Assembly: GCF_003334785.1 (NCBI RefSeq)
Contig: NZ_QOWV01000002.1
Direction: 5' to 3' (one strand)
Length of the DNA: 64,000 nt
DNA from: Escherichia coli
GTDB lineage: Bacteria > Pseudomonadota > Gammaproteobacteria > Enterobacterales > Enterobacteriaceae
Of this stretch, positions 5,110-34,454 are shown in pieces. Under the pieces are notes generated by a model. The model saw nothing but the letters and a program-made list of their open reading frames with translations, was not told the DNA's origin and ran no database searches. Numbering within the stretch: the stretch's first letter is position 1; each line of letters starts with the position of its first letter. The translations under genes were made by a program, and so were the position numbers.

Positions 5110-9174
<4,065 letters not shown>

Positions 9175-9446: not shown

Positions 9447-10805
9447 ATGTTGAGTATTTTTAAACCAGCGCCACACAAAGCGCGCTTACCTGCCGCGGAG
9501 ATCGATCCGACTTATCGTCGATTGCGCTGGCAAATTTTCCTGGGGATATTCTTTGGCTATGCGGCTTACTATTTGGTTCGTAAGAACTTTGCGCTTGCTA
9601 TGCCTTATCTGGTTGAGCAGGGATTCTCACGCGGTGATTTAGGTTTTGCCCTTTCGGGGATCTCGATTGCTTATGGATTTTCGAAATTCATCATGGGTTC
9701 GGTATCGGATCGCTCGAATCCGCGCGTTTTCCTGCCCGCAGGTTTGATTCTGGCGGCGGCAGTGATGTTGTTTATGGGCTTTGTGCCATGGGCGACGTCG
9801 AGCATTGCGGTGATGTTTGTACTGTTGTTCCTCTGCGGTTGGTTCCAGGGGATGGGGTGGCCGCCGTGTGGTCGTACTATGGTGCACTGGTGGTCGCAGA
9901 AAGAACGTGGCGGCATTGTGTCAGTGTGGAACTGTGCGCACAACGTCGGTGGTGGTATTCCGCCGCTGCTGTTCCTGCTGGGGATGGCCTGGTTCAATGA
10001 CTGGCATGCGGCGCTCTATATGCCTGCTTTCTGCGCCATTCTGGTGGCATTATTCGCCTTTGCGATGATGCGCGATACCCCGCAATCCTGTGGCTTGCCG
10101 CCGATCGAAGAGTACAAAAATGATTATCCGGACGACTATAACGAAAAAGCGGAACAGGAGCTGACGGCGAAGCAAATCTTCATGCAGTACGTACTGCCGA
10201 ACAAACTGCTGTGGTATATCGCCATCGCCAACGTGTTCGTTTATCTGCTGCGTTACGGCATCCTCGACTGGTCACCGACTTATCTGAAAGAGGTTAAGCA
10301 TTTCGCGCTAGATAAATCCTCCTGGGCCTACTTCCTTTATGAATATGCAGGTATTCCGGGCACTCTGCTGTGCGGCTGGATGTCGGATAAAGTCTTCCGT
10401 GGCAACCGTGGGGCAACCGGCGTTTTCTTTATGACACTGGTGACCATCGCGACTATCGTTTACTGGATGAACCCGGCAGGTAACCCAACCGTCGATATGA
10501 TTTGTATGATTGTTATCGGCTTCCTGATCTACGGTCCTGTGATGCTGATCGGTCTGCATGCGCTGGAACTGGCACCGAAAAAAGCGGCAGGTACGGCAGC
10601 GGGCTTTACCGGGCTGTTTGGTTACCTGGGCGGTTCGGTGGCGGCGAGCGCGATTGTTGGCTACACCGTGGACTTCTTCGGCTGGGATGGCGGCTTTATG
10701 GTAATGATTGGCGGCAGCATTCTGGCGGTTATCTTGTTGATTGTTGTGATGATTGGCGAAAAACGTCGCCATGAACAATTACTGCAAGAACGCAACGGAG
10801 GCTAA
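9447..10805 (+). CDS. glpT: Glycerol-3-phosphate:phosphate antiporter (MFS)
   Basis: 452-aa ORF recognised as GlpT. Confidence 0.95.
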
Positions 10806-22400: not shown

Positions 22401-25028
22401 ATGAGCGACCTTGCGAGAGAAATTACACCGGTCAACATTGAGGAAGAGCTGAAGAGCTCCTATCTGGATTATGCGATGTCGGTCATTGTTGGCCGTGCGC
22501 TGCCAGATGTCCGAGATGGCCTGAAGCCGGTACACCGTCGCGTACTTTACGCCATGAACGTACTAGGCAATGACTGGAACAAAGCCTATAAAAAATCTGC
22601 CCGTGTCGTTGGTGACGTAATCGGTAAATACCATCCCCATGGTGACTCGGCGGTCTATGACACGATCGTCCGCATGGCGCAGCCATTCTCGCTGCGTTAT
22701 ATGCTGGTAGACGGTCAGGGTAACTTCGGTTCTATCGACGGCGACTCTGCGGCGGCAATGCGTTATACGGAAATCCGTCTGGCGAAAATTGCCCATGAAC
22801 TGATGGCCGATCTCGAAAAAGAGACGGTCGATTTCGTTGATAACTATGACGGCACGGAAAAAATTCCGGACGTCATGCCAACCAAAATTCCTAACCTGCT
22901 GGTGAACGGTTCTTCCGGTATCGCCGTAGGTATGGCAACCAACATCCCGCCGCACAACCTGACGGAAGTCATCAACGGTTGTCTGGCGTATATTGATGAT
23001 GAAGACATCAGCATTGAAGGGCTGATGGAACACATCCCGGGGCCGGACTTCCCGACGGCGGCAATCATTAACGGTCGTCGCGGTATTGAAGAAGCTTACC
23101 GTACCGGTCGCGGCAAGGTGTATATCCGCGCTCGCGCAGAAGTGGAAGTTGACGCCAAAACCGGTCGTGAAACCATTATCGTCCACGAAATTCCGTATCA
23201 GGTAAACAAAGCGCGCCTGATCGAGAAGATTGCGGAACTGGTAAAAGAAAAACGCGTGGAAGGCATCAGCGCGCTGCGTGACGAGTCTGACAAAGACGGT
23301 ATGCGCATCGTGATTGAAGTGAAACGCGATGCGGTCGGTGAAGTTGTGCTCAACAACCTCTACTCCCAGACCCAGTTGCAGGTTTCTTTCGGTATCAACA
23401 TGGTGGCATTGCACCATGGTCAGCCGAAGATCATGAACCTGAAAGACATCATCGCGGCGTTTGTTCGTCACCGCCGTGAAGTGGTGACCCGTCGTACTAT
23501 TTTCGAACTGCGTAAAGCTCGCGATCGTGCTCATATCCTTGAAGCATTAGCCGTGGCGCTGGCGAACATCGACCCGATCATCGAACTGATCCGTCATGCG
23601 CCGACGCCTGCAGAAGCGAAAACTGCGCTGGTTGCTAATCCGTGGCAGCTGGGCAACGTTGCCGCGATGCTCGAACGTGCTGGCGACGATGCTGCGCGTC
23701 CGGAATGGCTGGAGCCAGAGTTCGGCGTGCGTGATGGTCTGTACTACCTGACCGAACAGCAAGCTCAGGCGATTCTGGATCTGCGTTTGCAGAAACTGAC
23801 CGGTCTTGAGCACGAAAAACTGCTCGACGAATACAAAGAGCTGCTGGATCAGATCGCGGAACTGTTGCGTATTCTTGGTAGCGCCGATCGTCTGATGGAA
23901 GTGATCCGTGAAGAGCTGGAGCTGGTTCGTGAACAGTTCGGTGACAAACGTCGTACTGAAATCACCGCCAACAGCGCAGACATCAACCTGGAAGATCTGA
24001 TCACCCAGGAAGATGTGGTCGTGACGCTCTCTCACCAGGGCTACGTTAAGTATCAGCCGCTTTCTGAATACGAAGCGCAGCGTCGTGGCGGGAAAGGTAA
24101 ATCTGCCGCACGTATTAAAGAAGAAGACTTTATCGACCGACTGCTGGTGGCGAACACTCACGACCATATTCTGTGCTTCTCCAGCCGTGGTCGCGTCTAT
24201 TCGATGAAAGTTTATCAGTTGCCGGAAGCCACTCGTGGCGCGCGCGGTCGTCCGATCGTCAACCTGCTGCCGCTGGAGCAGGACGAACGTATCACTGCGA
24301 TCCTGCCAGTGACCGAGTTTGAAGAAGGCGTGAAAGTCTTCATGGCGACCGCTAACGGTACCGTGAAGAAAACTGTCCTCACCGAGTTCAACCGTCTGCG
24401 TACCGCCGGTAAAGTGGCGATCAAACTGGTTGACGGCGATGAGCTGATCGGCGTTGACCTGACCAGCGGCGAAGACGAAGTAATGCTGTTCTCCGCTGAA
24501 GGTAAAGTGGTGCGCTTTAAAGAGTCTTCTGTCCGTGCGATGGGCTGCAACACCACCGGTGTTCGCGGTATTCGCTTAGGTGAAGGCGATAAAGTCGTCT
24601 CTCTGATCGTGCCTCGTGGCGATGGCGCAATCCTCACCGCAACGCAAAACGGTTACGGTAAACGTACCGCAGTGGCGGAATACCCAACCAAGTCGCGTGC
24701 GACGAAAGGGGTTATCTCCATCAAGGTTACCGAACGTAACGGTTTAGTTGTTGGCGCGGTACAGGTAGATGACTGCGACCAGATCATGATGATCACCGAT
24801 GCCGGTACGCTGGTACGTACTCGCGTTTCGGAAATCAGCATCGTGGGCCGTAACACCCAGGGCGTGATCCTCATCCGTACTGCGGAAGATGAAAACGTAG
24901 TGGGTCTGCAACGTGTTGCTGAACCGGTTGACGAGGAAGATCTGGATACCATCGACGGCAGTGCCGCGGAAGGGGACGATGAAATCGCTCCGGAAGTGGA
25001 CGTTGACGACGAGCCAGAAGAAGAATAA
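22401..25028 (+). CDS. gyrA: DNA gyrase subunit A
   Basis: 875-aa ORF; Ser83 (tcg 22647-22649) and Asp87 (gac 22659-22661) are wild-type in the QRDR; acidic C-terminal tail. Confidence 0.98.
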
Positions 25029-25176: not shown

Positions 25177-32023
<6,847 letters not shown>

Positions 32024-33673
32024 GTGAACTGGCGCAGAATCGTCTGGCTATTGGCGTTGGTTACTCTGCCAACACTTGCGGAGGAGACGCCGTTACAACT
32101 GGTGCTGCGCGGTGCGCAGCACGATCAACTGTATCAGCTGTCGTCATCAGGCGTGACCAAAGTCTCAGCATTACCTGACTCGCTCACCACGCCGTTAGGG
32201 AGTTTGTGGAAACTGTATGTTTACGCCTGGCTGGAGGATACCCATCAACCGGAGCAGCCCTACCAGTGTCGCGGAAACTCCCCGGAAGAGGTTTATTGTT
32301 GTCAGGCTGGGGAGAGCATAACGCGCGATACCGCGCTGGTACGTTCCTGTGGGCTCTATTTTGCGCCGCAGCGGTTGCATATTGGCGCAGATGTGTGGGG
32401 GCAATACTGGCAACAGCGTCAGGCACCTGCGTGGTTAGCGTCTCTGACTACGCTGAAGCCAGAAACCTCGGTAACGGTTAAATCGCTGCTTGATTCATTA
32501 GCGACGTTACCCGCGCAAAACAAAGCTCAGGAAGTCTTACTGGATGTGGTGCTGGACGAGGCGAAAATCGGTGTCGCATCCATGCTCGGTAGTCGGGTAC
32601 GGGTGAAAACCTGGAGCTGGTTTGCCGATGATAAACAGGAAATCCGTCAGGGTGGTTTTGCTGGCTGGTTAACCGATGGTACACCGCTGTGGGTTACTGG
32701 CAGTGGCACCAGCAAAACGGTACTAACCCGTTATGCGACGGTGCTTAATCGGGTTTTGCCAGTGCCGACGCAGGTTGCCAGTGGGCAATGTGTAGAGGTG
32801 GAGCTGTTTGCCCGCTATCCGCTGAAGAAAATCACAGCGGAAAAGAGTACGACGGCAGTAAATCCCGGCGTACTTAATGGGCGCTATCGTGTGACGTTTA
32901 CTAATGGTAACCACATTACGTTTGTCAGCCACGGTGAGACGACCTTACTGAGCGAAAAGGGCAAACTGAAATTGCAGTCGCATCTCGATCGTGAAGAGTA
33001 CGTTGCCAGAGTTCTGGATCGCGAGGCGAAAAGTACGCCCCCTGAGGCAGCGAAAGCCATGACCGTGGCGATTCGCACTTTTTTACAGCAAAACGCCAAT
33101 CGGGAAGGCGATTGCCTGACCATCCCCGACAGCAGCGCCACGCAGCGTGTTTCTGCTTCGCCAGCGACCACGGGGGCGCGAACGATGACCGCCTGGACGC
33201 AGGATCTCATCTATGCAGGCGATCCGGTTCATTATCATGGCAGTCGCGCTACCGAAGGGACACTTTTCTGGCGGCAAGCCACGGCCCAGGCGGGGCAGGG
33301 AGAGCGTTACGATCAGATACTCGCGTTTGCTTATCCCGACAACAGTCTTAGCCGCTGGGGAGCGCCACGCTCAACCTGCCAGTTATTACCCAAAGCGAAA
33401 GCCTGGCTGGCGAAAAAAATGCCGCAGTGGCGGCGTATATTACAAGCTGAGACGGGGTACAACGAACCAGACGTGTTTGCGGTTTGCCGTTTAGTCTCAG
33501 GTTTCCCCTATACCGATCGGCAGCAGAAACGGCTGTTTATTCGTAACTTCTTTACGCTTCAGGATCGGCTGGATTTAACCCATGAGTATCTGCACCTGGC
33601 CTTTGATGGTTATCCCACCGGGCTTGATGAGAACTATATCGAAACGCTGACCCGACAATTATTAATGGACTAA
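32024..33673 (+). CDS. yfaQ: Uncharacterised exported protein (YfaQ, DUF2300-like) with a C-terminal HExxH motif
   Basis: 549-aa ORF starting with GTG immediately after the yfaS stop; signal peptide MNWRRIVWLLALVTLPTLA; HEYLH encoded at 33581-33595. Confidence 0.8.
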   Translation: MNWRRIVWLLALVTLPTLAEETPLQLVLRGAQHDQLYQLSSSGVTKVSALPDSLTTPLGSLWKLYVYAWLEDTHQPEQPYQCRGNSPEEVYCCQAGESITRDTALVRSCGLYFAPQRLHIGADVWGQYWQQRQAPAWLASLTTLKPETSVTVKSLLDSLATLPAQNKAQEVLLDVVLDEAKIGVASMLGSRVRVKTWSWFADDKQEIRQGGFAGWLTDGTPLWVTGSGTSKTVLTRYATVLNRVLPVPTQVASGQCVEVELFARYPLKKITAEKSTTAVNPGVLNGRYRVTFTNGNHITFVSHGETTLLSEKGKLKLQSHLDREEYVARVLDREAKSTPPEAAKAMTVAIRTFLQQNANREGDCLTIPDSSATQRVSASPATTGARTMTAWTQDLIYAGDPVHYHGSRATEGTLFWRQATAQAGQGERYDQILAFAYPDNSLSRWGAPRSTCQLLPKAKAWLAKKMPQWRRILQAETGYNEPDVFAVCRLVSGFPYTDRQQKRLFIRNFFTLQDRLDLTHEYLHLAFDGYPTGLDENYIETLTRQLLMD

Positions 33674-33677
33674 TGCT

Positions 33678-34454
33678 ATGCGAAAGATTTTTCTTCCGTT
33701 GTTACTGGTGGCGCTTTCGCCTGTCGCTCACAGTGAAGGTGTGCAGGAAGTCGAGATTGATGCACCGCTCTCAGGCTGGCATCCGGCAGAGGGCGAAGAT
33801 GCCAGTTTTTCACAATCGATCAATTACCCGGCGTCGTCCGTCAACATGGCAGATGATCAAAATATCTCAGCGCAGATCCGCGGCAAAATAAAGAATTATG
33901 CTGCGGCGGGTAAAGTTCAGCAGGGCCGGCTGGTGGTCAACGGTGCCAGTATGCCGCAGAGAATTGAATCCGATGGTTCATTTGCACGCCCTTATATTTT
34001 CACTGAAGGCAGCAACAGCGTGCAGGTCATCAGCCCGGATGGGCAAAGCCGACAAAAAATGCAGTTTTACTCAACGCCGGGTACAGGAACGATTCGTGCA
34101 CGTTTACGGCTGGTTCTCTCGTGGGATACGGACAATACCGACCTCGACCTTCACGTTGTTACGCCCGATGGCGAACACGCCTGGTACGGTAACACCGTGC
34201 TGAAAAACAGTGGTGCACTGGATATGGATGTCACGACGGGGTACGGACCCGAGATTTTCGCCATGCCCGCGCCAATTCACGGGCGCTATCAGGTGTATAT
34301 CAACTACTATGGTGGGCGCAGCGAAACGGAATTAACCACCGCCCAACTGACGCTGATCACCGATGAAGGATCGGTCAATGAGAAACAGGAAACATTTATT
34401 GTACCGATGCGTAATGCTGGCGAGCTGACGCTGGTGAAAAGTTTTGACTGGTGA
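33678..34454 (+). CDS. yfaP: Uncharacterised exported protein (YfaP, DUF2135-like)
   Basis: 258-aa ORF with signal peptide MRKIFLPLLLVALSPVAHS; last gene of the operon. Confidence 0.8.
   Translation: MRKIFLPLLLVALSPVAHSEGVQEVEIDAPLSGWHPAEGEDASFSQSINYPASSVNMADDQNISAQIRGKIKNYAAAGKVQQGRLVVNGASMPQRIESDGSFARPYIFTEGSNSVQVISPDGQSRQKMQFYSTPGTGTIRARLRLVLSWDTDNTDLDLHVVTPDGEHAWYGNTVLKNSGALDMDVTTGYGPEIFAMPAPIHGRYQVYINYYGGRSETELTTAQLTLITDEGSVNEKQETFIVPMRNAGELTLVKSFDW

Follow-up and report, generated by a model that had tools for sequence, protein, structure and literature searches.

A conserved HExxH site in a zincin-like C-terminal domain of Escherichia coli YfaQ, a candidate minimal metallopeptidase of the type II alpha-2-macroglobulin gene cassette

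Type II alpha-2-macroglobulins (A2Ms), represented by YfaS of Escherichia coli and MagD of Pseudomonas aeruginosa, have no thioester, depend on partners encoded in their own operon and are cleaved in vivo, and the operon has been linked to virulence and lately to protection from peptidoglycan-targeting effectors of type VI secretion systems (T6SS) (PMC3735191, PMC5764988, PMC12663445). The gene that follows magD in the P. aeruginosa magABCDEF operon encodes MagE (PA4488), the counterpart of E. coli YfaQ (PMC3735191, PMC5764988). MagE has been proposed to be a chaperone or a signal-peptide-processing factor (PMC5764988). In contrast to the cytoplasmic chaperone or signal-peptide-processing factor of the literature, we read YfaQ here as a candidate zincin. 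The analysis concerns the yfaQ gene in a stretch of E. coli DNA of 64,000 nucleotides (contig NZ_QOWV01000002.1 of RefSeq assembly GCF_003334785.1). This whole stretch is called the window; positions are counted from its first letter, and features lie on the plus strand unless stated otherwise. The yfaQ coding sequence (32024-33673) has a GTG start and specifies 549 amino acids followed by a stop codon, as given by the list of open reading frames and their translation; RefSeq annotates a "YfaQ family protein" with the same ends and the same start.

Among described zincins, the minigluzincins (selecase MJ1213, proabylysin and projannalysin, related to the YgjP-like, M48 and M56 proteins) are those that the C-terminal domain of YfaQ most resembles. 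They share with it a size of about 100 residues, a backing helix, a three-stranded sheet, an HExxH helix and a C-terminal helix, and they include its best sequence-profile matches, selecase and the selecase homologue P0269. The minigluzincins, however, are stand-alone archaeal proteins, whereas in YfaQ the domain forms the C-terminal part of a presumably periplasmic protein with three domains, and it has no auto-inhibitory tail after its last helix, unlike the minigluzincins. The third zinc ligand of the minigluzincins was reportedly described as a His in the original account; YfaQ of E. coli has Tyr530 instead, and the best-conserved candidate in its family is a Glu at +12 from the second His of the motif. 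SprT/Spartan, Wss1 (WLM) and E. coli YgjP are cytoplasmic or nuclear, DNA-linked zincins with an HExxHx5H motif, whereas the corresponding His at +6 is not conserved in the YfaQ family and is a Tyr in E. coli. BlaR1/MecR1 (MEROPS M56) has in common with YfaQ the pairing of a penicillin-binding protein (PBP) fold with a small zincin, but this is a likeness of architecture only. BlaR1 is an integral membrane protein with an N-terminal zincin among transmembrane helices and a C-terminal class D-like sensor, whereas YfaQ is soluble, has the reverse domain order with a SpoIID-like domain in between, and belongs to an A2M operon rather than to a bla/mec regulon. No significant sequence similarity was found between YfaQ and BlaR1/MecR1, and no membrane-spanning segment was noted after the signal peptide in the YfaQ model, which has three soluble domains only and so falls outside the BlaR1/MecR1 type. 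Finally, the middle domain of YfaQ resembles the SpoIID/LytB lytic transglycosylases in a Pfam SpoIID match and in a Glu aligned with their catalytic residue; we know of no SpoIID protein with a zincin domain.

The five codons cat gag tat ctg cac (33581-33595) are in frame in the yfaQ reading frame and encode H520-E521-Y522-L523-H524, with H520 lying 29 residues from the C-terminus. An earlier prediction made from the DNA sequence had placed an HEYLH motif at these positions, about 30 residues from the end of YfaQ, and both the sequence and the translation agree with it. It had also cautioned that a five-residue motif may occur by chance. Composition alone gives an expected 0.009-0.016 HExxH motifs or so in a protein of YfaQ length, so a single HExxH proves little, and conservation is the deciding test. 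By extrapolation of the same rate, chance alone would supply an E. coli proteome with tens of such motifs. Apart from HEYLH, the long stop-to-stop frames of the window (at least 200 codons) contain a single HExxH, an HEDFH at about 24330-24344 on the minus strand, antisense to gyrA, which is almost certainly not part of a real protein and exemplifies the chance background.

When 1.84 billion cluster representatives were searched exhaustively with HMMER, 291 relatives of YfaQ were retrieved. Sixty-three full-length relatives, one per 50%-identity cluster and 27-50% identical to YfaQ, were aligned with MAFFT, and residues were counted in 268 retrieved sequences, 201 of them with an intact C-terminus. 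In the alignment H520 and E521 are present in 63/63 sequences and H524 in 62/62, and the pattern HE[YFW][LVIMCF]H occurs in all 201 C-terminally intact sequences. The only two long sequences among the 268 that lack HExxH are both cut off by the end of a contig. This degree of conservation is exceptional within the protein: mean column identity across the alignment is 24%, and only 34 of the 549 columns are at least 98% conserved, H520, E521 and H524 among them. A window with i, i+1 and i+4 all conserved to this degree occurs three times, against 0.13 expected by chance, and the three correspond to one signature per domain, namely G59-S60..K63, R329-V330..R333 and H520-E521..H524. The reading that HExxH is a chance occurrence without special role, which has the chance background of the proteome in its favor, deserves practically no credence: no family member at 27-50% identity departs from the motif, which sits in a zincin-like fold, and conservation and fold together refute it. 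The prediction of a metallopeptidase-like site depended on the motif being kept in orthologues, and here it has held up.

The fold comes from AlphaFold2 models. A full-length model based on a 73-sequence alignment has a mean predicted local distance difference test (pLDDT) score of 95.1 and a predicted template modelling (pTM) score of 0.92, and contains three domains after the signal peptide. The C-terminal mini-zincin-like domain comprises residues 446-549 (33359-33670). Its predicted elements are a helix (456-473), three strands (486-489, 496-498 and 503-506), the helix that carries the motif (512-526), a short helix (531-534) and a last helix (536-548). The HEYLH sequence lies near the C-terminal end of helix 512-526, and two acidic residues, E536 and E540, are in the first two turns of helix 536-548. 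Two cysteines of the domain, C452 and C488, are invariant. Modeling the isolated domain from 54 diverse sequences left the secondary structure unchanged, with a pLDDT of 94.9. Nearly all structural neighbors of the domain are zincin metallopeptidases, and the top Foldseek matches are selecase (E 0.024, probability 0.85), IrrE, abylysin, Wss1, BlaR1 and BepA. Of the features expected of a zincin of the clan MA type, the model has HExxH on a helix, a backing helix with a mixed beta-sheet, and similarity of fold. As the motif is predicted to lie on a helix within a zincin-like domain, structural context leaves the idea of a metallopeptidase site standing.

Sequence comparison of the domain points, more weakly, in the same direction. 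Its best sequence-profile match in the PDB is selecase (E 0.21), over the motif helix and the strand that precedes it, where 'kriyvrk.....leseedritlaHEYlHlaf' of the YfaQ family is aligned to 'KTIYINKNILPYLSDEEIRFILAHELLHLKY' of selecase; the local pattern 'ritLaHEYLHLaf' is aligned to 'RFILAHELLHLKY'. A search with the selecase fragment retrieved a single homologue, P0269, which itself has matches to Pfam M56 and YgjP-like families, and hhalign aligned it to the YfaQ domain with a probability of 82% over 29 columns; this match speaks for distant homology rather than membership. With the E. coli YgjP family set, hhalign gave a probability of 5.7%, with a profile of low diversity since all relatives retrieved with YgjP were at least 78% identical. 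Among the 54 C-terminal domains, Pfam matches below threshold were to Peptidase_M78 in six and to SprT-like in five, and neither PF01863 nor PF05569 (minigluzincin/YgjP-like) matched YfaQ or any of the 54. The YfaQ sequence by itself found nothing in the PDB. We conclude from fold and motif, as modeled, that the C-terminal domain would be placed among the minimal zincins, and that sequence evidence does not establish its membership of any curated family. We regard it as a putative zincin family, so far unrecognized, that is part of a new architecture of three domains and is linked to the type II A2M cassette. A metzincin assignment (HExxHxxGxxH with a Met-turn) was rejected: the position of the Gly is F527 (Phe in 50/64 sequences), that of the third His is a Tyr in E. 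coli, and there is no room for a Met-turn subdomain because only 19 residues, forming one helix, follow position 530. As a separate observation, phrog_1365, a phage family of 127 residues, weakly matches four of seven C-terminal domains (that of the window, 33359-33670, together with those of six relatives) over a region that includes the HExxH helix, with a best E-value of 2.5e-4, and might itself be a mini-zincin that has gone unannotated.

For the third zinc ligand of the proposed site there are two candidates. The original prediction had pointed to acidic residues downstream of the motif, and these are well conserved: after H524 come D535 (+11) and E536 (+12) at 33626-33631 and E540 (+16) at 33641-33643, with E536 present in 198/201 sequences and an acidic residue at position 540 in 200/201 (Glu in 194, Asp in 6). 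In gluzincins the Glu ligand lies on the next helix and an acid four residues later usually bonds the first His; E-x-x-x-[E/D] is typical. The segment E536-N-Y-I-E540 (33629-33643), at the start of helix 536-548, has this pattern, and E536 as third ligand with E540 as second-shell acid is the most likely assignment on the residue counts; E536 is favored over residue 530 because of its conservation. Position 530 (Y530 in the window, 33611-33613) is the other candidate. It is occupied by His in 159 of the 201 sequences, Tyr in 36, and by the non-ligand residues Thr in three and Arg, Gln and Ala in one each, and the sequences with Tyr include E. coli and its close enterobacterial relatives. With His, the motif becomes HExxHx5H, a spacing that is also present in E. 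coli YgjP ('HELAHLKEKEH'). Both His and Tyr occur as transition-state stabilizers in zincins. Residue 530 may be either an alternative ligand or a transition-state stabilizer, the latter if E536 is the ligand.

On the strength of the models and of the conserved residues we think it likely, though by no means certain, that the C-terminus of YfaQ is a functional minimal zinc endopeptidase, a previously unannotated zincin of about 100 residues of the gluzincin or minigluzincin-like kind. H520 and H524 would hold the zinc and E521 would activate water as the catalytic base; E536 would complete the metal site, with E540 behind it as second-shell acid. The invariant motif, the modeled helical zincin-like fold, the arrangement in three domains and the conserved order of genes are results, from which binding of zinc, catalysis, the third ligand and the substrate are inferred. 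A noncatalytic relic, in which HExxH would be a structural metal site or a docking surface for cassette partners, is improbable by comparison. The Tyr of the E. coli clade at +6, where most relatives have His, would suit such a relic, as would the lack of any reported activity to date, the divergence of the PBP-like domain from the catalytic consensus (S-C-G in place of SxN and KT[FWY] in place of KTG), which means that not every domain of YfaQ need be an enzyme, and the proposal that MagE is a chaperone (PMC5764988). Yet Glu521, the presumed catalytic base, is as invariant as the two His residues in both sequence sets, E536 and E540 are kept too, and a structural site alone would not need the full HExxH and E-x-x-x-E pattern. 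Pseudo-zincins commonly lose the catalytic Glu. A relic is thus possible but appears to fit poorly with an invariant Glu521.

The C-terminal domain is preceded by two others, and that YfaQ also carries two peptidoglycan-enzyme-like domains was overlooked in the original prediction. The first, at about residues 24-292 (32093-32899), is a divergent domain of the PBP/beta-lactamase fold, recognized by Foldseek, by profile search and by column counts. Foldseek with the full model against the PDB found class A beta-lactamases, PBP3 and a DD-endopeptidase with E-values of about 1e-5, and a profile search gave a weak PBP match across the SxxK and S-C-x motifs. S60-x-x-K63 is invariant and stands at the start of helix 59-73, within an invariant G-S-x-W-K (G59-K63, 32198-32212). 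The second PBP motif is S108-C109-G (32345-32353) in place of SxN, with S108 and C109 invariant. The third, K195-T196-[F/W/Y], lies on a strand (32606-32614; W197 in E. coli) and stands in place of KTG, with K195 and T196 invariant. Such motifs point away from a canonical DD-peptidase and towards either a binding domain or an acyl-serine enzyme that has diverged.

The second domain, at about residues 297-445 (32912-33358), is SpoIID-like according to Pfam, the family profile and column counts. Pfam SpoIID (PF08486) matches residues 312-374 with an E-value of 1.4e-5, and the family profile matched Bacillus anthracis SpoIID (4rwr, E 5e-4) in the PDB in two stretches, as well as Clostridioides difficile SpoIID. 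E334 is aligned to the catalytic Glu of SpoIID and is kept in 72/73 sequences, and R329, V330 and Q374 are invariant. The NCBIfam model SpoIID_LytB (TIGR02669) scored far under its threshold, at 17.7 bits against a cut-off of 83.3. The single difference between YfaQ of the window and K-12 YfaQ (548/549 identical) falls in this domain: residue 415 (33266-33268), within the SpoIID-like 'L-S-W..A' motif, is Phe here and Ser in K-12, and a small residue (Ser, Ala, Gly, Thr or Val) in 72/73 aligned relatives. The yfaQ DNA of the window is 100% identical to that of many complete E. coli genomes, and the Phe415 allele is common to several complete genomes that are identical throughout the gene.

These domains are concealed by the present annotation. 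Pfam DUF2300 (PF10062) has two full-model matches in YfaQ, to residues 84-205 (32273-32638) and 412-532 (33257-33619), with 146 and 156 bits; the E-values of the pair are 7.7e-46 and 6.2e-43. The first lies inside the PBP-like domain and the second takes in most of the zincin together with the last part of the SpoIID-like domain. An internal duplication of the two stretches, which would align HExxH with K195-T196, was rejected (BLASTP E 17; hhalign probability 0.1%; different secondary structure). As the two stretches are nonhomologous, the "tandem DUF2300" label given to the protein in K-12 RefSeq is misleading, and the PF10062 model behaves like a mixture of two unrelated segments. The label hides three different enzyme-like domains.

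YfaQ would be exported to the periplasm. A predicted Sec signal peptide of 19 residues (32024-32080), MNWRRIVWLLALVTLPTLA, followed by EE, can be read off the sequence, and a signal peptide with a signal-peptidase-I site has been given for YfaQ (bioRxiv 10.1101/2025.02.11.637708). Eight cysteines are invariant or nearly so (C82, C92, C93, C109, C256, C364, C452 and C488; 32267-33487). This pattern would suit an exported protein with disulfide bonds, and it conflicts with the published fractionation of P. aeruginosa MagE with the cytoplasm. In the periplasm, the PBP/beta-lactamase-fold and SpoIID-like domains would probably hold or orient YfaQ on the cell wall.

The two peptidoglycan-enzyme-like domains make peptidoglycan a serious alternative substrate. 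A working zincin could trim or remove stem peptides so that the SpoIID-like domain cuts denuded glycan, as SpoIIP does for SpoIID, and the PBP-like domain could recognize cross-links or cut them. On this view YfaQ would act as a self-contained enzyme of wall remodeling or repair that merely shares an operon with the A2M. We regard this scheme as less probable than an A2M substrate but well worth keeping in view. Two of the three domains of YfaQ have peptidoglycan-enzyme folds with the key residues S60xxK63 and E334 kept. To our knowledge, HExxH zincins that act on peptidoglycan peptides are rare, which counts against it, and most peptidoglycan metallopeptidases are of the LAS, M14 or M23 types. 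[quoted passage not shown] In an E. coli imaging screen, deletion of yfaQ gave wider cells and was grouped with those of mepK, mepS, nlpI and further envelope genes; the same study calls YfaQ bipartite, with transpeptidase-like and SpoIID-like parts, and mentions neither zinc nor a peptidase (bioRxiv 10.1101/2025.02.11.637708). Since yfaS is a pseudogene in K-12, the phenotype of the yfaQ deletion needs no intact A2M, and this too speaks for peptidoglycan.

Gene order speaks for the A2M. Six loci with relatives 27-34% identical to YfaQ were examined, and in 6/6 the YfaQ homologue comes after a large upstream gene, often overlapping it, and before a YfaP_C gene; the full order DUF2138, MagC, A2M, YfaQ-like, YfaP is present in 3/3 loci long enough to show it. 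Pfam MG2, A2M_BRD and A2M matches were found in homologous loci. Pseudomonas DUF2300/SpoIID proteins of equal length are about 54-56% identical to YfaQ, although PA4488 itself was not among the sequences compared. Deletion of magE alters the amount of MagD, and higher-mass, apparently unprocessed forms of MagD appear (PMC5764988). The zincin would thus be the resident endopeptidase of a five-gene cassette (DUF2138, MagC-like, A2M, YfaQ, YfaP), and its substrate would be the macroglobulin partner YfaS/MagD, by way of maturation or bait-region processing; the A2M is chosen because its gene is strictly linked to that of YfaQ and because MagD is affected when magE is deleted. A peptidoglycan substrate would leave unexplained why an A2M gene is strictly linked in every locus whose flanks are long enough, and would need an indirect cause for the change in MagD processing. 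Our certainty about YfaS/MagD as substrate is nevertheless much lower than about the zincin itself: the functional link between YfaQ and the A2M is a proposed one, drawn from conserved gene order and the published altered processing of MagD (PMC5764988).

Several observations weigh against a working zincin that acts on the A2M. Foldseek with the C-terminal domain gave no match as good as an E-value of 0.001, and no significant match to any curated metallopeptidase family was found, with Pfam giving DUF2300 and SpoIID only. In NCBIfam and PHROGs, the seven diverse C-terminal domains obtained weak matches (M3 oligoendopeptidase, E 0.002-0.02; PHROG "metallo-protease", E 0.011) on which membership cannot be based. 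E536 is only 12 residues after H524, a shorter spacing than in classical gluzincins, and where 79% of relatives have His at +6, E. coli has Tyr, so that the third ligand is ambiguous. An envelope and cell-width phenotype is seen upon deletion of yfaQ in K-12, with its yfaS pseudogene. MagE was found in cytoplasmic fractions (PMC5764988) despite a signal peptide, which is noted in a table of PMC3735191, and it formed no stable complex with MagD (PMC3735191, PMC5764988).

A more elaborate version of the A2M scenario joins the evidence from all three domains, and we put it forward as speculation that is quite improbable as a whole. YfaQ/MagE would be a soluble periplasmic counterpart of a BlaR1-type sensor-protease, in which the PBP-like and SpoIID-like domains sense the state of the peptidoglycan (for example, T6SS amidase or muramidase damage, or beta-lactam-like acylation) and switch on the mini-zincin, which then cuts the bait region of the thioester-less YfaS/MagD. 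If this were so, the cassette would be armed by a self-encoded, damage-triggered protease and not by the protease of an attacker.

Which protease cleaves the type II A2Ms has been a standing question since 2013, and an invariant zincin-like site inside the operon's own YfaQ/MagE is a concrete candidate; single-residue substitutions can now be used to probe MagD processing and the role of MagE. The HExxH motif was apparently overlooked in the functional papers searched: no mention of a zinc site, HExxH or a metallopeptidase domain was found in the literature on YfaQ, MagE, DUF2300 and yfaS that was searched, subscription papers being outside that scope. The assignment would also remove part of a "domain of unknown function" from a K-12 y-gene that is present in about 98% of E. 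coli genomes and in many Proteobacteria.

The order of genes in the window is gyrA, yfaA, yfaT, yfaS, yfaQ and yfaP; next comes the ato operon, encoded on the other strand. yfaA (25177-26865; DUF2138, MagB-related) and yfaT (26862-27485; DUF1175, MagC-related) are placed by RefSeq annotation transferred from locus L003, yfaA also by a match to NCBIfam PRK11410. yfaS, the type II A2M homologue, spans 27404-32023 in the open reading frame list and starts at 27509 in RefSeq, which calls it an "MG2 domain-containing protein"; it is uninterrupted here over some 1,500 codons, whereas in K-12 MG1655 it carries a pseudogene annotation. The cassette closes with yfaP (33678-34454; DUF2135/YfaP_C, MagF-related), which is given by both the open reading frame list and RefSeq. 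The GTG start of yfaQ immediately adjoins the stop codon of yfaS (32021-32026), and in distant relatives the A2M and YfaQ-like genes overlap by 11 to 29 bases (positions 10001-10011 of locus L002 and 7287-7315 of locus L004). Such adjacency or overlap suggests translational coupling of the A2M and YfaQ-like genes.

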